Positions 8,154 through 16,602 of a DNA stretch of 64,000 bases are shown here, piece by piece (position 1 is the stretch's first letter; every line of letters starts with the position of its first letter). The translations under genes were made by a program, and so were the position numbers. Source of the stretch: Gammaproteobacteria bacterium (GTDB taxonomy: Bacteria > Pseudomonadota > Gammaproteobacteria > PIVX01); contig PIVX01000005.1 of assembly GCA_003353785.1 (NCBI GenBank), forward strand, positions 30,854 to 94,853, read 5' to 3'. The notes under the pieces were generated by a model that was not told the DNA's origin, ran no database searches, and worked only from the letters and a program-made list of their open reading frames with translations.

Positions 8154-8675
8154 TTAATAATCTGTTGCAATTTGCTCATATACAAACTTATTTTGACAGA
8201 TAGCTAAACATTCGTTCACAGTCATTTTATTGGGTAATATTATATTAGGAATTAAATCTGCTATAGGTAGTAATACAAAATCCCTATTTAATATTTCTGG
8301 ATGTGGAATTTGCAATTTATCGTCATTGATAATTCTATTATCAATGTATATTAGGATATCTATATCAATATTTCTTGGTCCCCAATGAATTTTGCTGTAC
8401 TTATTTTGCTCTTTTGCTATATTATTCATTGCTGCTAGTAAATTGTGTGGTGATAGCTGTGTATCTATTAAGATTGCACTATTTGTGTAATCAGGTTGTT
8501 TAACAGAACCGTGAGGTTTGCTTAAATAAAGCTTGGATTTAGCAATTATCTCGATTGCTTTTTCTTCATTAATTTTCTTTATGGAGAGTTTGATCTGTTC
8601 AAAAGGATTATCTAGATTGCTACCAAGACCAAGGATACATCTAGAATAAACTTGATGTTTATTTATGTAATTCAT
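8154..8675 (-). CDS. folK: HPPK (2-amino-4-hydroxy-6-hydroxymethyldihydropteridine diphosphokinase)
   Basis: LGLGSNL, WGPRNIDIDIL, IPHPEILNRDFVL. Directly downstream of pcnB. Confidence 0.93.
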   Translation of the reverse strand: MNYINKHQVYSRCILGLGSNLDNPFEQIKLSIKKINEEKAIEIIAKSKLYLSKPHGSVKQPDYTNSAILIDTQLSPHNLLAAMNNIAKEQNKYSKIHWGPRNIDIDILIYIDNRIINDDKLQIPHPEILNRDFVLLPIADLIPNIILPNKMTVNECLAICQNKFVYEQIATDY

Positions 8676-9942
8676 CTAACATCTCTAGCTGTGTTGGTTC
8701 ATCTGCCTCTTGAAATTTAGTCCACCAATCTGCAATGTTTTGTTCTATTTCTCCTGATTCAGCACGAATTAATAGGAAATCATAAGCGGCTCTAAATCTT
8801 GGGTGATGCAATAAAGATAAAGGTGATTTACCTCTTCTTCTTTCTAGCCTGTTTTGCAAGGTAAATATTTCTTTAATAGATCTGATGAATCTTTTTGAGA
8901 TAGATATGGTTTCTATTTGTTTAGCAATTATACTGCGGATAGACGAGTCTATTTTTTTTGTTATTGATATTTGTTCGGTATCTGGTTTATTAACTTCGCT
9001 CTGTAGTACTGGCCAGAGTATAGCTACAAATAAAAAAGCAGGTGTTACAGGTTTATTTGCTTTAATTCTTTTATCGGTACTTCTAAATGTGTATAACAAG
9101 ATTCTTTCCTGTATGGGATGATGGTTGATAACTTGCTGAGTTGAAGGAAATAATATCTTAAAAAATCCGTATGTATTTAGTAATACATATATTTTTTCAG
9201 CACAACCACAGTGGAATAATTTTATTACTTCATCGAATAGTCTAACAGTTGATACATGGGTTATAAGGTGTTTATTATGATGGATCCCTTGTGAGGTCAT
9301 TTTCTCAATAGAAAATTCAAGTTTTGCAGAAAAACGAATAGCTCTAATCATTCTGACGGGATCTTCTCTATACCGAATGTCTGGAACTCCTATGATTCTT
9401 AGCAGTTTCTTTTGAATGTCAGCAAATCCTCCAGTAAAATCAATTAAATTGTTTCTGACTGCATCATAATAAAGCGAATTAATGCTGAAATCTCTTCTCC
9501 AAGCATCTTCTTCAATGTTGCCATAAATATTATCTCTGACAATCATACCATGATTATTTTTTTTATGATGTTTCCCTTGGTATTGTCCTTCACTTCTGAA
9601 AGTAGCAACTTCTATAATTGATCTATTAAATAATAGATGGGCTAATCTAAAACGTTTACCAATTAATCTACAGTTCCTGAATAATTTATATATTTTCTCT
9701 GGTGTAGCATCGGTAGCTATATCAATATCTTTTGGGGAAATACGCAGCAGTAAATCACGAACACTACCTCCTACAAGATATGCTTGATATTTTGAACGAT
9801 GAAATTTTTCTAATGTGTTAATAGCATTTTGTGGAATATTATCTACTAAGATTTGATAATCTTGTTTATTAACAATAGGAAGCTTTATTTGCATAGCTTG
9901 CTTTTTATTAATAATTTTTCTAATAAATTTTTTTATGGGCAT
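8659..9942 (-). CDS. pcnB: Poly(A) polymerase I
   Basis: LVGGSVRDLLL..PKDIDIAT, LIGKRFRLAH, RRDFSIN, EDPVRMIRA, HPRFRAAYDFL. Confidence 0.95.
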   Translation of the reverse strand: MPIKKFIRKIINKKQAMQIKLPIVNKQDYQILVDNIPQNAINTLEKFHRSKYQAYLVGGSVRDLLLRISPKDIDIATDATPEKIYKLFRNCRLIGKRFRLAHLLFNRSIIEVATFRSEGQYQGKHHKKNNHGMIVRDNIYGNIEEDAWRRDFSINSLYYDAVRNNLIDFTGGFADIQKKLLRIIGVPDIRYREDPVRMIRAIRFSAKLEFSIEKMTSQGIHHNKHLITHVSTVRLFDEVIKLFHCGCAEKIYVLLNTYGFFKILFPSTQQVINHHPIQERILLYTFRSTDKRIKANKPVTPAFLFVAILWPVLQSEVNKPDTEQISITKKIDSSIRSIIAKQIETISISKRFIRSIKEIFTLQNRLERRRGKSPLSLLHHPRFRAAYDFLLIRAESGEIEQNIADWWTKFQEADEPTQLEMLDELHK

Positions 9943-10120
9943 TAGTATTATCTGGGTTATCTTGTTTTTTTAAAAATTGTATATATTATCGTCTATGAAT
10001 GCAATATATGTGAATGTTTTTATAAAACAATTATGATTTTTCAGCATAACTTACTATATAGTCTAAGATCAAAAAATAAAATCTTACAGAATTTTTCCTA
10101 ATATAACACGGTTTATTATT

Positions 10121-11323
10121 ATGTATGACTCAAAAAATTCTTTTCGATGGTTAAATGAACAAAAACAAAGCATGATGGATTTACTAATCAAGCTTGCTGA
10201 TCAAAATTCTGGAACTAAAAATGCTCGTGGTATGGGTTTGGTGGCAAATATCATTAAAGAAAAATTAGTAGAACTAGGAGCCGATATTGTTCAGCAAAAA
10301 TTACCTGGATATACCGATATAGATCTGCATGGGATAAAGTCTAATATTGAGGTATATGATTTTATTGTTGCTACTAAAAGAGAAAAATCTGATAGATCTC
10401 TATTATTAGGAGGACATTTAGATACTGTGTATGAAAAGAATGAAAAAAAAGTAGCAGTAGAAGGAGATTATCTAATTGGTCCAGGAGTCGCCGATATGAA
10501 AGGTGGGCTTGTTGTCATGCTATATGCTCTACAAGCTTTTGAAAAGCTGAACATCAAAAATAAAATAGGATGGCAAATCTTCTTAGACTCAGATGAAGAG
10601 ATTGGTTCCATTGGTTCAAAGCAAGAGTTAACTAAATTAGCGAAAAAACATCAGTTAGCATTTATTTTTGAGCCGGCAATTAATTTACGAGGAGATATAT
10701 CAGGCAATAGAATGGGGAGTGGTAAATTTACTATTGTGGTTGTTGGTAAATCCGCGCATGTTGGTCGGGATTTTAATAATGGTAAAAACGCCATTATAAT
10801 GCTTGCCGCTATAGTTCAAAAAATACATAATTGGAATAGTCTAGCAAAAGATATTATTATTAATGTAGGAAAAATTTTTGGTGGAGATGCTGTTAATAAG
10901 ATTCCAGATCTTGCTGTTGCAAAAATTGATGTTAGATTTTCAAATAAAGATATAGCAGATTGGTTTAAGAACAAGATTAATTCTTTAATAAAAGAGTTTG
11001 ATCAGAGCTTAGGATATTCTGTGCAATTATATGGTAAATTTACTAGACCAGTAAAAAAATTAACTGATAAAGCAAAAGAAGTTAGTGCTAAAGTACAACA
11101 AATTGCTAATTCTTTAAATCAACATATTGATGTAGTTGATACTGGTGGATGTTGTGATGGCAATAATTTAGCTGAATTTGGCTGTATAACAATAGATACG
11201 CTTGGTGTGTTGGGAGATAATATTCATAGTAGTAGTGAGAGAATGTTAATAGATAGTCTTGTGTCAAGATCTCAACTAGTTCTAGAATTAATGCTTAATT
11301 ATCAGCAAGGAAAATTATTATAA
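10121..11323 (+). CDS. M20-family metallohydrolase (probable succinylglutamate desuccinylase of the AST operon)
   Basis: GHLDTV, GVADMKGG, DEEIGS, FEP, GGCCDGN, IHS motifs. First gene of the astA-astD operon. Confidence 0.85.
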   Translation: MYDSKNSFRWLNEQKQSMMDLLIKLADQNSGTKNARGMGLVANIIKEKLVELGADIVQQKLPGYTDIDLHGIKSNIEVYDFIVATKREKSDRSLLLGGHLDTVYEKNEKKVAVEGDYLIGPGVADMKGGLVVMLYALQAFEKLNIKNKIGWQIFLDSDEEIGSIGSKQELTKLAKKHQLAFIFEPAINLRGDISGNRMGSGKFTIVVVGKSAHVGRDFNNGKNAIIMLAAIVQKIHNWNSLAKDIIINVGKIFGGDAVNKIPDLAVAKIDVRFSNKDIADWFKNKINSLIKEFDQSLGYSVQLYGKFTRPVKKLTDKAKEVSAKVQQIANSLNQHIDVVDTGGCCDGNNLAEFGCITIDTLGVLGDNIHSSSERMLIDSLVSRSQLVLELMLNYQQGKLL

Positions 11324-12339
11324 TGTCTAACTTTATGTTTAGAACAGTAAAGATGGATGATCTAGATGATGTATTTGAACTGATAAAATCTAATAGTGGT
11401 GGAATGAGCTCCTTATTGTCATCAAAAGGAAATATAAAAAGACAAATAAAAAGATCTACTAGTTCTTTTAAAAAGAAAACTGATTTTCTTGAGAATGAAA
11501 AATATTTGTTTGTTTTGGAAGAACTTGACTTACGTAAAATAATTGGAATATCTGGGATTGAGGCGGTTGTGGGATGTGAACATCCTTTTTATGTATACAA
11601 AATTGATAGGGAACATGTGCTTAATAGTCAGCTTAATTTAGCATATGATAGGGAAACCATATCGTTAGTAAACGACTATACAAACGTTTCAGAACTATGT
11701 AGTTTGTTTTTAGATCGTAATTATCGTAAATTTGGCTTGGGATCATATTTATCAAGAATTCGGTTTTTATTTATAAGAATATTTCCAGAGAGATTCTTTA
11801 ATAAGGTAGTTGCTGATCTTCGTGGAGTAATTGATGCTGATGGAGGTTCTCCATTTTGGCAGAGTCTGGGGAAAAAATTTTTTGATATAGAATATAACGA
11901 AGCAATACAAAAAATTTCTTCAGCTAATTATTATCCATTAGCTGATATATTGCCAAAACATCCAATATATCTAAATTTTCTTTCGAAAGAGGCTATTAAT
12001 GTGATAGGTAAAACGCATATTAATACTAAACCTGTACTAGATATTTTGAGTTCTGAAGGGTTCACCTACTATAATTATGTCAATGTATTTGATGCTGGTC
12101 CGATTGTTGAATGTCAGAAAAATAAAATTAAAACTATTAAAAAGGTAAAAGAATGTTATGTTACGGGTCAAAAAGATAAATTGACTACCGACAAAAAAAA
12201 ATTAGTTGCTAACATGCGGTTAGACTTTAAAGCAATGTTATCAAATGTGGACTTTATTAATAATAAAGAAGTTATATTACCAAAAAAAATTTTAAAGGCA
12301 ATGCAGTTAAAAATAGGTGATCAAATATTAATTTTATAA
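11323..12339 (+). CDS. astA: Arginine N-succinyltransferase
   Basis: YLFVLE, ELCSLFL, LSRIRFLFI, LRG..SPFWQSLG..FF, PIY, FDAGP. Confidence 0.92.
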   Translation: MSNFMFRTVKMDDLDDVFELIKSNSGGMSSLLSSKGNIKRQIKRSTSSFKKKTDFLENEKYLFVLEELDLRKIIGISGIEAVVGCEHPFYVYKIDREHVLNSQLNLAYDRETISLVNDYTNVSELCSLFLDRNYRKFGLGSYLSRIRFLFIRIFPERFFNKVVADLRGVIDADGGSPFWQSLGKKFFDIEYNEAIQKISSANYYPLADILPKHPIYLNFLSKEAINVIGKTHINTKPVLDILSSEGFTYYNYVNVFDAGPIVECQKNKIKTIKKVKECYVTGQKDKLTTDKKKLVANMRLDFKAMLSNVDFINNKEVILPKKILKAMQLKIGDQILIL

Positions 12340-12345
12340 ATATCT

Positions 12346-13800
12346 ATGTTAGAAAAATATGCTAATTTAATTAATGGAGAGTGGTTACAAGGATCAGGTA
12401 GAACTTTGGTATCAGATAGCCCTGCAAATAATAAAAAGCTATGGCAAGGCAATATGGTTAACACTGATGAACTTGGATATGCTATTAAGAGTTGTCAACA
12501 GGCTTTCAAACATTGGTGTATGTTTGATATAAAAGATAGGATCAGGATCCTAAAAAAATTTCAGGATAAACTAAAAAATAATTTAAAAAAACTTGCTCTA
12601 ACAATTTCCATGGAAAATGGAAAACCTTTATGGGAAGCTATATCAGAAGTAAATTCTGTGATCAGTAAAATCGATATTTCTATTGAAGCACATTTTTCAA
12701 GATGTGTAGAACTAGATAATATTCATAATAATTGCAAATCTGTTATTAACTATAAGCCGATAGGAATTTTTGCGGTGCTAGGTCCATTTAACTTTCCTGC
12801 TCACCTTCCTTTTGGACATATCATTCCTGCAATATTGGCAGGTAACTGTGTAGTATTTAAACCGAGTGAACTAACTCCTCTTGTTGCTAAATATTTCATT
12901 GAATATTTAGCAAATTCAGGATTACCAGCGGGGGTTGTTAACCTGATCCAGGGTGATCATAAAATTGGAGAAAGTTTAGTATGTAGCGAAGTGAATGGTG
13001 TTTTATTTACTGGGGGTTATGAGACAGGAAAGAAGATCCATAAGTTAAATGCAGGTCAACCTTGGAAGGTGTTAGCTTTAGAGATGGGAGGTAATAATCC
13101 TTTGGTAATTAGTAAAGCAAAAGACTTATTGATGGCAGCAGATGTTACCTTAATATCAGCTTTTATCTCATCTGGACAAAGGTGTAGTTGTGCAAGAAGA
13201 GTAATTCTAACCAGTGACGTAGATCAGCCGAAATTTATTTCAATATTAACTGATAAAATAAAGCAGATCAGGATAGGAACATACGATCAGAGTCCTGAAC
13301 CATTTATGGGGCCATTAATAAATCAGCAGGCAGTTAAGGGAGTTATTGGTTATCTTGATAAGTTAGTAGGTCTTGGTGCTAGTGTGTTATTAGCAGGAAA
13401 TGTTAGTCAAAAAAATCCGACAATTATCACTCCTAGTATTGTAGATGTTTCCAAAATTAATATTCCTGATCATGAATGTTTTGGGCCAATCTTACAAGTT
13501 ATTAGAGTGGCTGATCTAGACGATGCAATTATTGAAGCTAATAATACAAAATATGGTTTAGCATCTAGTATCCTGACTGATGATCAGGATGAATTTATCA
13601 AGTTTAGGGATAGAATAAATGCAGGAATTGTAAATTGGAATATGCCAACTACAGGAGCATTATCAAGAGCACCTTTTGGTGGTATTGGTAAGAGTGGTAA
13701 TTTTAGACCAGGAGCATATTTTGCTGCTGACTATTGTTCATATCCATTTGCTGGTATGTATACAATGGATAAATTCACTCATAGTTTTCCAGGAATTTAG
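12346..13800 (+). CDS. astD: Succinylglutamate-semialdehyde dehydrogenase
   Basis: GPFNFPAHLP.GHIIPA, LALEMGGNNP, SGQRCSCARR, SGNFRPGAYFAADYC. Confidence 0.93.
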   Translation: MLEKYANLINGEWLQGSGRTLVSDSPANNKKLWQGNMVNTDELGYAIKSCQQAFKHWCMFDIKDRIRILKKFQDKLKNNLKKLALTISMENGKPLWEAISEVNSVISKIDISIEAHFSRCVELDNIHNNCKSVINYKPIGIFAVLGPFNFPAHLPFGHIIPAILAGNCVVFKPSELTPLVAKYFIEYLANSGLPAGVVNLIQGDHKIGESLVCSEVNGVLFTGGYETGKKIHKLNAGQPWKVLALEMGGNNPLVISKAKDLLMAADVTLISAFISSGQRCSCARRVILTSDVDQPKFISILTDKIKQIRIGTYDQSPEPFMGPLINQQAVKGVIGYLDKLVGLGASVLLAGNVSQKNPTIITPSIVDVSKINIPDHECFGPILQVIRVADLDDAIIEANNTKYGLASSILTDDQDEFIKFRDRINAGIVNWNMPTTGALSRAPFGGIGKSGNFRPGAYFAADYCSYPFAGMYTMDKFTHSFPGI

Positions 13801-13808
13801 TTATAGCT

Positions 13809-14876
13809 ATGAAAAATTGGACAACATATAAAAACAAATTTATAGATTTACTTTGTCCGGCTGGAGATGGGGTCTATGCTGTAACATCTAAAGCATCAAT
13901 AAAAAATTCTTTACAGGGTAAAATATATGGAGTACCTCCAAAGCATGTTGAAGATAAATGGCAGGAAAATTTAGCTAGCCCACCGACTGGTCTTTGTATC
14001 TTAGGAGTTTCATCAGATTGTGGAGGAGGAATTTTAAGAGGTGCTAATTGGGGGCCTTTGTATTTACGTCAGGAGTTGTATTCTTCACAAACAGATTTAT
14101 ATGATCTTGGCGATGTTAGAGTGATCCCTCAGTTGTTGCTGGATGACTATCTAAATATTGACACAATTAAGCAATGTAGAAAATCTTTATATTTAAATGA
14201 AAATTCAGAGTATCCAGTTAGTCCCCTCTCAATCACTGAGAAAGTGCAAGAGCTCTTATATGAGTATGATAACTCTTTAAAAATATTAGCTCTTGGTGGA
14301 GATCATTCTATAAGTTATCCATTAGTAAAAAGTTATTTACAGTATAAAAAATTAGCTAGTACTGATGTTGCTATTGTTCATTTTGATGCTCATACTGATT
14401 TACTGGAGTCTAGATTAGGCTTGCCAATAACTTTTGGCTCCTGGGTTTACCATGTATTACCATATATATTGAATGATCGCTTCATTCAGATTGGTATTCG
14501 AGCATCTGGACATCCTAAATCATATTGGGAAGAAAAATATGGAATTAAACAATTTTGGTCTGATGAAATAATAAATAATAAAGTTAATAATAGACATATT
14601 ATTAGTTACTTAAAAGAACAGAATGTAAATGAAATATATATATCATTTGATATTGATGTGATCGATGAGAAATTCGTATCGGCAACTGGGACTGCTGAAC
14701 CAAATGGTTTATATCCAGATATTGCTTATCAATTGTTAGAAGATCTTATTAGTAATTTTAAATTAACAGGTGCTGATCTTGTAGAGGTTGCTCCTTTAAT
14801 TAAGGTTAGTAATAATGATCAAACCATGCAGGTTGCTAAAGAAATAATGAATATACTCTGTCACGGGATGTTTTGA
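13809..14876 (+). CDS. Arginase/agmatinase-family ureohydrolase
   Basis: Intact Mn-binding motifs GGDHS, DAHTD and SFDIDVID, plus GT.EPNG and DLVEVAP. Starts 8 nt after astD. Confidence 0.9.
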   Translation: MKNWTTYKNKFIDLLCPAGDGVYAVTSKASIKNSLQGKIYGVPPKHVEDKWQENLASPPTGLCILGVSSDCGGGILRGANWGPLYLRQELYSSQTDLYDLGDVRVIPQLLLDDYLNIDTIKQCRKSLYLNENSEYPVSPLSITEKVQELLYEYDNSLKILALGGDHSISYPLVKSYLQYKKLASTDVAIVHFDAHTDLLESRLGLPITFGSWVYHVLPYILNDRFIQIGIRASGHPKSYWEEKYGIKQFWSDEIINNKVNNRHIISYLKEQNVNEIYISFDIDVIDEKFVSATGTAEPNGLYPDIAYQLLEDLISNFKLTGADLVEVAPLIKVSNNDQTMQVAKEIMNILCHGMF

Positions 14877-14895
14877 GGTTAATAAAGGAGCTTTA

Positions 14896-15621
14896 TTGGA
14901 TAGAGGAGAGATTTTAACAAAGTATACTCTTTTTAAGTGCCTATTATTTATTAGTGTTGGAAGCATATGGTTCGGGTATATTTATTATTCTAATAGCTAT
15001 CAGATCGATTCTGAACTTTTACGTGAGCCAATTCAAAGTATCTATGCTAAGAAAAGGATGACTTCTGCTGTTTTAGGTGAAAAAAATTTAGATATTGAGT
15101 TTATTAGTAGTTTTACTTTATGGGGAATAATTGTCTCAATATCAAATCAAGCTCTAATTGATAAGAGTGGATTAATAAATTTATGCTTGCTATGGGGGGA
15201 GAACATATCATTATATCAACAAGGAAATTATAGTTGTTGGCATGAAAATGGTAGATGTATGTTAGAGATTAAACAAGGGGATAGTAATAAATTTATGATT
15301 AAAAATTTTTCTAATAATCATGTTTTACTTCCAAGCAAAGGCTTGCAGAATAAAGCAAGTGCATTGAATATTGGAGATCAAATTAAGATCACAGGAGATT
15401 TAGTGAATATTAAAAATAAAGGAGCAAAAGATTGGCTTAATACTAGTACTATAAGAGACGACATAGGTGATGGGGCTTGTGAAGTCATCTTGGCTAAGAA
15501 AATAGAAATTTTAGTTAGCAATAAAAATTCAAATAATATATTAATACACATCATTTTTTTATTAGTTTTATGTGGTTTAATTATGTTAGATCAACCAAAT
15601 AGCTTATTATTGAAAAATTAA
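14896..15621 (+). CDS. Conserved hypothetical membrane protein (N- and C-terminal TM)
   Basis: Contains the recurring 'SNNH...IGDQIKITGDLV...TSTIRDDIGDGACEVI' pattern. Function unknown. Confidence 0.6.
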   Translation: MDRGEILTKYTLFKCLLFISVGSIWFGYIYYSNSYQIDSELLREPIQSIYAKKRMTSAVLGEKNLDIEFISSFTLWGIIVSISNQALIDKSGLINLCLLWGENISLYQQGNYSCWHENGRCMLEIKQGDSNKFMIKNFSNNHVLLPSKGLQNKASALNIGDQIKITGDLVNIKNKGAKDWLNTSTIRDDIGDGACEVILAKKIEILVSNKNSNNILIHIIFLLVLCGLIMLDQPNSLLLKN

Positions 15622-15885
15622 ATCCAAATTTTTTTTACAATATGGAAAAACTAAAATAATATTTTAATTAGATAAAGATATTAGGATATTAATCAATTAG
15701 AGAATCATTTTCAGATGAATATAGCAGATGAGGTATTCGATAATTTAATAGGAGAGGAAAATATTAAAAAAATAATCTTGATACTTAGTCTAATTAATAT
15801 AACTTTACTGATGTTGTCGTAAATATTTTAACTAATACAGAGGCTCTCCATATTAATTTATTGTATTTTATAAAGCAAATTTTAG

Positions 15886-16602
15886 TTATAAACTAAACTT
15901 AGCTTCTTTCCCACTTTCATAAAACATTTTTACTGTATCCAAAGAATATTCTTTAAGATCATATCCAATCATCGATATCTTTTTATAAATACTATGAGTA
16001 ATTGTAATTGCCTGGCAACCAATGCTATCTGCTTGAAAAATGTTTAACAGCTCTCTAGAACTAGCCCATATTAATTCTGCGTCCGGGTTCTGCTTAAGTA
16101 GCTGAACTGTTTGACTCATAATTGGCATTGGATCTATACCAGTATCAGCTATCCTGCCAGCAAATATGGAAACATAACTAGGAACACCGACGGTCAAACT
16201 ACCAATTATCTCTTCAACTTGTTCTAAAGTTAATATAGCTGTAATATTAACTTTAATATTTTGCTGAGTTAACGACTTTATTAATTTACAAAGAGATTTT
16301 CCTTTAGTATTTGTAATAGGTATTTTTACATATACATTATCACCCCATGCACTAATAATTTTTGCTTGCTTTTCCATTTCATCTATTTCATCACTAAAAA
16401 CTTCAAAAGAAATTGTTTTATCATTAATTTTAGCGAGGCTTTCTTTAGCAAATTTTGTGTAATCAGTAATACCAGATGCTGCCATTAAAGTAGGGTTAGT
16501 GGTAAATCCGTGAATATATGGCTTGTCTTGAGCCTCAATTATATTGTGCTCATCAGCACTATCTAGAAGAATCTTTGTTTGTATCTTTTCTATTTTATTC
16601 AT
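15886..16602 (-). CDS. tal: Transaldolase (short type, glycan-cluster associated)
   Basis: GFTTNPTL, VYVKIP (Schiff-base Lys), NITA, SIFAGRIAD. Confidence 0.9.
   Translation of the reverse strand: MNKIEKIQTKILLDSADEHNIIEAQDKPYIHGFTTNPTLMAASGITDYTKFAKESLAKINDKTISFEVFSDEIDEMEKQAKIISAWGDNVYVKIPITNTKGKSLCKLIKSLTQQNIKVNITAILTLEQVEEIIGSLTVGVPSYVSIFAGRIADTGIDPMPIMSQTVQLLKQNPDAELIWASSRELLNIFQADSIGCQAITITHSIYKKISMIGYDLKEYSLDTVKMFYESGKEAKFSL

Follow-up and report, generated by a model that had tools for sequence, protein, structure and literature searches.

Arginine is degraded aerobically in many Proteobacteria by the arginine succinyltransferase (AST) pathway, a textbook route annotated by five genes (astCADBE) in which AstB uses cysteine-based chemistry to release two molecules of NH3 and one of CO2. 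The locus described here raises the question of how N2-succinylarginine is processed when an AST operon has no astB and carries in its place a gene of the arginase family, the members of which use a binuclear metal centre and yield urea. The operon occupies positions 10121-14876 of a 64,000-nucleotide stretch of DNA (contig PIVX01000005.1, positions 30,854 to 94,853; hereafter the window) from a gammaproteobacterial genome (assembly GCA_003353785.1). The ureohydrolase (UH) that it encodes very probably replaces AstB functionally, whatever the order of the steps, and is predicted, with a probability of roughly 55%, to hydrolyse N2-succinylarginine to N2-succinylornithine and urea.

A ureohydrolase in the AstB position

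The operon consists of four open reading frames (ORFs) on the forward strand. The first (10121-11323) encodes an M20/M25/M40 metallo-hydrolase of the NF005602/PRK07338 type (hereafter M20), matching PF01546 and PF07687 and scoring 415 bits on NF005602 against a cut-off of 357. It is followed by astA (11323-12339), encoding an arginine (or arginine/ornithine) N-succinyltransferase (PF04958, 346 bits; TIGR03243, 327 against 284), and astD (12346-13800), encoding an N-succinylglutamate 5-semialdehyde dehydrogenase (PF00171; NF006992, 588 bits against 514) with a TIGR03240 score of 574.9 bits that lies just below the cut-off of 579.3. The last gene (13809-14876) encodes UH (P0001, 355 residues), an arginase-fold ureohydrolase that matches PF00491 over residues 62-348 with 159.2 bits (cut-off 22). 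The junctions are a 1-nucleotide overlap (TAATG) and then gaps of 6 and 8 nucleotides. An earlier note on this DNA had described precisely this tight arrangement and the lack of astB in the window, and had given hydrolase, astA, astD and astB as the Legionella-type order; the ORFs are exactly as described, and the order (AstC)-M20-AstA-AstD-AstB exists in AstB-type relatives, such that UH stands here in the AstB slot.

The source genome (G000; 3.07 Mb, 813 contigs) is 93.8% complete, and no match to AstB (PF04996) was detected in the window or anywhere else in it. Likewise, AstE (TIGR03242) had no match in this 93.8%-complete genome, in which UH is the sole PF00491 gene. No urease alpha subunit was found in the source genome or in any of the UH-type genomes checked (6/6), so the urea would be excreted. 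One ArgD/AstC-family transaminase is encoded on another contig (C468), scoring 423.5 bits against 410 on TIGR00707 and 329 bits against 610 on the AstC model TIGR03246.

With 813 contigs and a completeness of 93.8%, it might be supposed that AstB was missed in a fragmented draft assembly and that UH is merely an extra gene. This is very improbable, as AstB is absent too from more complete genomes with UH (G001, 98%; G322, 99%; G157, G505 and G790, 100% each) and the post-AstD slot, which is the AstB site in relatives, is filled by UH on a contig of 123 kb.

Distribution of UH, AstA and AstB

A sample of 401 genomes of the class was analysed, of which 400 were scored for the UH clade at E <= 1e-40 (G248 being left out). 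The clade was found in 7/400 scored genomes and AstA in 30/401, with AstA present in 7/7 of the UH genomes and AstB in only one of these seven (G185). The 30 AstA genomes divided into 23 with AstB only, six with UH only, one with both and none with neither, AstB being present in 23/23 AstA genomes that lacked UH. Sampling 401 genomes of the phylum gave five more UH genomes, each from family f185, with AstA in 5/5 and AstB in 3/5. A related-locus search yielded 18 further UH genomes (Cognaticolwellia, Colwellia, Bacteriovorax, Bdellovibrionota, Myxococcota-like and 'Deltaproteobacteria' records), with AstA in 18/18 and AstB in 0/18, these being genomes without completeness figures. In total AstA was present in 30/30 UH genomes and AstB in 4/30, leaving 26/30 without AstB, and the carriers range over Gammaproteobacteria, Bdellovibrionota and Myxococcota-like metagenome-assembled genomes (MAGs). 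The predicted co-occurrence of this ureohydrolase clade with AstA is thus borne out in every carrier.

The PF00491 genes other than UH in AstB-type genomes are of the agmatinase or formimidoylglutamase (HutG) types, with no arginase among them. Compared with AstB (EC, Enzyme Commission, 3.5.3.23; PF04996), UH has the same position in the pathway and the same slot after AstD, presumably the same substrate and product (N2-succinylornithine) and a complementary distribution among AstA genomes. It differs in an unrelated fold, PF00491 being the only Pfam family matched by UH with no homology to PF04996, and in the metal centre and urea expected of it. The phylogenetic profile and the operon slot, together with the complementarity of M20 and AstE (see below), make non-orthologous displacement of both AstB and AstE well supported.

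It has to be considered whether UH might be a broad or different guanidino hydrolase, acting for example on 4-guanidinobutyrate, agmatine or N-acetylarginine, and linked to AstA only indirectly through a shared arginine regulon, with succinylarginine handled by an unrecognized enzyme or not at all. In keeping with this, guanidinobutyrase (3nio) and guanidine hydrolase (7esr) are, among solved proteins, those closest to UH in sequence, and several carriers (Cognaticolwellia, Bacteriovorax, G157 and family f185) have UH outside the AST operon. An indirect link is, however, improbable given that AstA accompanies UH in every carrier while occurring in only 30/401 genomes of the class sample, that the class sample holds no AstA genome without both AstB and UH, that UH is fused to AstA in two architectures and sits exactly in the AstB slot, and that the source genome has no other PF00491 gene. 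Readings of UH other than the succinylarginine route or an arginase acting ahead of AstA are, taken together, unlikely.

Family, fold and conservation of UH

UH falls below all NCBIfam equivalog cut-offs, scoring 81.9 bits against 227.6 for arginase (TIGR01229), 107.4 against 174.3 for agmatinase (TIGR01230) and 80.4 against 229.15 for HutG (TIGR01227). Its homologues number in the thousands, are about 368 residues long and bear generic labels only ('arginase family protein', 'agmatinase'). In a tree with labelled outgroups, comprising six TIGR01229 arginases, agmatinase/GbuA-like proteins and HutG proteins, 24 UH sequences formed one monophyletic clade on a long branch (99% in the Shimodaira-Hasegawa-like approximate likelihood ratio test, SH-aLRT) with the six arginases outside it. 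Within the tree the UHs of Bacteriovorax (G403, G407-G409) group with those of the Colwellia type (G185, G401, G402, G406) at 99% SH-aLRT and not with other Bdellovibrionota, which suggests, from the sequences, horizontal transfer among marine bacteria. The UH clade is a branch of the arginase family that had not been characterized before, and it probably releases urea from succinylarginine, which would be an undescribed enzyme activity.

All six metal ligands (H166, D193, H195, D197, D281 and D283) and the guanidinium-orienting E326 are present in UH, align with the same residues in arginases and agmatinases, and are invariant in 120/120 close and 42/42 distant UH relatives, in agreement with the earlier observation that the manganese ligands are intact. 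The AlphaFold2 (AF2) model has the arginase alpha/beta fold with high confidence (predicted local distance difference test, pLDDT, 94.8; predicted template modelling score, pTM, 0.94). Every match listed by Foldseek is a ureohydrolase, with E values from 2e-20 to 2e-17; proclavaminate amidinohydrolase (1gq6) is first (E 2.3e-20, template modelling score 0.74), with guanidinopropionase narrowly behind and only a small lead over other ureohydrolases. In profile searches UH matched guanidinobutyrase (1.4e-41), guanidine hydrolase (5.6e-38), proclavaminate amidinohydrolase (3.6e-37) and arginases of plants (4e-37) and animals (about 1e-29). Even the solved proteins closest to UH are distant, with identities of only 20-24%.

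The closest comparison is with proclavaminate amidinohydrolase (1gq6) and the GbuA/GpuA enzymes (3nio, 3nip), which like UH have the arginase fold and belong to the agmatinase-like side of the superfamily, share a short loop A with UH, and match it best both in structure (Foldseek E 2e-20) and in sequence (profile E 1e-41 to 4e-37). Proclavaminate amidinohydrolase acts on an N-alpha-acylated arginine derivative. The identity to these enzymes is only 20-24%, and UH has in addition an N-terminal extension of about 60 residues, in which residues 4-54 form three confident helices in the AF2 model, and an insertion near residues 104-141 that is conserved; a conserved N-terminal motif, L-C-P-x-G-x-G-V, is also present. 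UH differs further in having Phe209 in place of a conserved histidine and the clade-specific Arg202, Lys235 and Lys237. Phe209 is Phe in 120/120 close relatives and Phe or Tyr in 41/42 distant UHs, and Arg202 is found in 120/120 close and 37/42 distant UHs. The other clade-specific residues are Trp212, Trp240 and basic residues at 235 (K, H or R in 109/120 close relatives) and 237 (K or R in 114/120). The earlier note had taken the N-terminal extension and a GILRGANWGP loop as marks of a distinct subfamily with altered specificity. The extension stands as three helices, but alignments identify the loop as a version of the R-x-G-x-x-x-G-P motif common to agmatinase-like ureohydrolases, and as a marker of specificity it has to be given up. 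From the alignments, better candidates for specificity residues are Arg202, Lys/His235, Lys237 and Phe209.

Succinylarginine or arginine as the substrate

The genomic pattern supports displacement of AstB but does not establish the substrate first proposed for UH, as it is also predicted if UH is a divergent L-arginase that converts arginine to ornithine and urea, in which case AstA would succinylate ornithine and the later steps would run as usual. The net chemistry would be unchanged with the order of the first two steps swapped, and would be the same as that of a RocF-type arginase (TIGR01229) working with an ornithine succinyltransferase (AstO/AOST), namely arginine to succinylornithine and urea. 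There is precedent for this, since one report describes AstA of both E. coli and P. aeruginosa as accepting ornithine and AstO as an ornithine succinyltransferase (PMC12375414). This order of steps is possible but doubtful.

UH shares its metal ligands with arginase but falls far below the arginase equivalog (81.9 against 227.6 bits), and long, well-supported branches separate it from true arginases as a clade of its own. One account of arginase assigns the binding of the alpha-amino group to loop B (D181-P184 and Glu186), with Asp183 and Glu186 in human numbering (PMC9224512). In the alignment six true arginases have R-S-V-D-P-A-E in this loop where UH has R-S-S-G-K-P-K, with Gly234 at the position of Asp183 and Lys237 at that of Glu186, such that the acidic residues for the alpha-amino group are replaced by Gly and Lys. 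In addition, Arg202 of UH aligns with Phe194 of plant (Arabidopsis) arginase, which is described as lining the pocket in a second study, with an offset of 21 that fits every residue named there (PMC7370999). Basic residues in both substrate loops of UH would fit a dicarboxylate without a free amine, such as succinylarginine.

AstA itself has been examined for a change that would accompany a switch to ornithine. The AstA of the window passes only the arginine/ornithine family model TIGR03243 and not the AstA equivalog TIGR03244 (317 bits, cut-off 391), which would be in keeping with ornithine as its substrate. This failure carries little weight, since AstAs of AstB-type genomes likewise score 307-394 on TIGR03244 and overlap with the 317-513 of UH-type genomes; the shortfall of the window AstA is thus attributed to lineage divergence and not to pathway type. 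UH-type AstAs are polyphyletic and scattered over the AstA tree, which is weakly resolved (17/31 branches open), and share no change, with members at the level of the equivalog at 513 and 408 bits. The Cognaticolwellia AstA, from a genome without AstB, passes TIGR03244 (513 against 391) and is 82-83% identical to the AstA of G185, a genome with AstB. Among the 40 columns conserved in AstB-type AstAs, no specificity-determining position differed consistently between UH-type and AstB-type proteins. By sequence, AstA looks unchanged in UH-type genomes. An arginine-accepting AstA in a genome without AstB would spend succinyl-CoA on succinylarginine as a dead-end product unless UH consumes it, and this waste speaks against an arginase acting first.

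Several observations weigh against succinylarginine as the substrate of UH. If UH were an arginase ahead of AstA, its distribution, its place in the operon and the fusions would be expected just as much. The exclusion of AstB by UH, which had been foreseen and which 26 of the 30 carriers respect, is not strict, as four genomes (G185, G525, G621 and G734), all of the Alteromonadales-like family f185, carry both proteins; two enzymes for a single step are less parsimonious than complementary roles, and an arginase would explain the presence of both without redundancy. The lack of completeness figures for the 18 further genomes likewise counts on this side. Two of the four genomes, G525 (L155, L156) and G621 (L159, L160), each hold two separate AstC-AstA(-AstD) sets. 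By analogy, these double sets are reminiscent of the arginine and ornithine sets of Acinetobacter, and a second AstC-AstA set would fit ornithine succinylation. As for the active site, the pocket was mapped by sequence alignment of the loops and not on a liganded structure, and the conserved Glu241, one helical turn past Lys237, could still serve the amino group. In arginases and agmatinases the aligned site of Phe209 is occupied by a histidine with a catalytic role, and the chemistry of UH may accordingly differ in detail.

M20 as a proposed substitute for AstE

In 16 genomes M20 was found next to AstA or close by (15 identified by tblastn, and G404 by Pfam), with AstE in 0/16. Conversely, eight genomes with AstE had no M20 in the AstA locus. 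Neither was seen in a further ten AstA genomes, several of these on short contigs. Besides the window (10121-11323), M20 was located in the AstA loci L105, L108, L109, L113, L116, L118, L122, L124, L125, L127, L128 and L133. This distribution, complementary to that of AstE, supports a role of M20 as the N-succinylglutamate desuccinylase in place of AstE, as the earlier note had supposed. The proteins are not homologous, and M20 is named only 'hydrolase' by NCBIfam. It is apparently an undescribed AstE analogue. DapE-type M20 enzymes (compare the DapE/ArgE deacylases) remove succinyl groups, and here the M20 gene heads an AST operon. As M20 occurs in AstB-type operons too, its displacement of AstE appears to be independent of that of AstB.

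Gene order and fusions

The order M20-AstA-AstD-UH with pcnB upstream is found in the source genome, G001 and G322. In G139, UH directly follows AstA. In G156, UH lies 3.2 kb farther downstream behind unrelated genes, and its link to the AST genes is one of proximity and not of a tight operon. The intervening region between AstD and UH (L094:8672-11888) encodes MtnB-like (aldolase II), MtnA-like (IF-2B family) and DUF1622 proteins, together with a fused MsrB-MsrA gene on the opposite strand. In G157, M20, AstA and AstD are together with UH elsewhere. Cognaticolwellia and family f185 have an AstC-AstA-AstD operon with UH as a separate gene, as is AstB in those genomes that have it.

The neighbours of stand-alone UH genes were uninformative in Cognaticolwellia (L004), Bacteriovorax (L008), G157 (L096) and family f185, consisting of topA, an Ig-like protein, a 2-hydroxyacid dehydrogenase, Aat, GCS2 and an N-formylglutamate amidohydrolase (FGase). 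In G157 the stand-alone UH (L096:7218-11335) is flanked by a GCS2-family ligase gene, an N-formylglutamate amidohydrolase-family gene and a gene for a 294-residue protein that belongs to no family.

UH and AstA are fused in a protein of 812 residues from a 'Deltaproteobacteria' MAG (G405, L135:7028-9466, reverse strand), in which UH is N-terminal and an AstA-like domain C-terminal, and in the reverse domain order in a metagenomic protein of 998 residues (P0122). Among the best 150 matches in a library of 1.84 billion proteins, no fusion representatives other than these two appeared; fusions are thus rare, yet they arose in two architectures. They suggest a direct hand-over of succinylarginine between the two enzymes. 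An AstA frame of 684 residues in G415 was considered as a further fusion and rejected, since it has only one domain and is probably an over-extended ORF. In P0121, a protein of 643 residues, a domain of the UH clade is combined with an N-terminus resembling biotin-protein ligase; this protein is represented by one cluster on a contig of 2 kb and may be an artefact of assembly or gene calling.

The proposed pathway and its implications

The operon would encode a variant AST pathway in which two canonical enzymes are displaced by unrelated ones. AstA would succinylate L-arginine, and the binuclear metal centre of UH would then hydrolyse the guanidino group of N2-succinylarginine to give N2-succinylornithine and urea. 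An ArgD/AstC-type transaminase encoded elsewhere, presumably that on contig C468, would convert N2-succinylornithine to N-succinylglutamate semialdehyde, which AstD would oxidize to N-succinylglutamate, and succinate would finally be removed by M20 and not by AstE. The substrate of UH and the role of M20 are here inferred. Searches of the literature outside subscription journals and supplements gave no paper in which succinylarginine is the substrate of a ureohydrolase.

On this evidence the locus would represent a known pathway in a new variant, built on a new subfamily of ureohydrolases whose activity is predicted from sequence. The chances are about even that a urea-forming N2-succinyl-L-arginine amidinohydrolase defines a second, 'urea-type' AST pathway that extends over at least three phyla and often has M20 in place of AstE. 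If so, carriers without urease would discard half of the nitrogen of arginine (2/4 atoms) as urea and not as ammonia, and such an output may suit predatory and host-associated bacteria on diets rich in amino acids. Such a change in nitrogen output, from 2 NH3 and CO2 to urea, would matter when the metabolism of marine Alteromonadales-like bacteria, predators of the Bacteriovorax type and Legionellales/Francisellaceae-like bacteria is modelled. Where a genome has astA and astD but neither astB nor astE, annotation would count the pathway as broken, and the UH clade offers a concrete candidate for the missing step. If the activity is confirmed, the ureohydrolase superfamily would gain a new class of substrate, and hence a new EC entry, and thousands of database entries under the generic labels could receive new names.

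Features flanking the operon

Upstream of the operon lies the divergent gene pcnB, encoding poly(A) polymerase (8659-9942, reverse strand). The 178-nucleotide intergenic region between the two (9943-10120) is presumed, by position only, to be the promoter region; a promoter and terminator scan of 9800-16000 found 35 promoter-like sites against 37.2 expected from shuffled sequence, which is no excess. The divergent layout of pcnB and M20 is kept in G001, G322 and G156. A divergent pcnB stands beside the AST operon in the source genome and in four relatives (L091, L092, L094 and L107), of UH and AstB types alike, a conserved arrangement for which function offers no evident explanation.

Downstream of UH, at a distance of 19 nucleotides, is an orphan ORF on the forward strand (14896-15621, 241 residues, TTG start) whose membership of the operon is doubtful. 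It had no Pfam or NCBIfam match and no tblastn match in related loci, and its product has hydrophobic segments at both termini.

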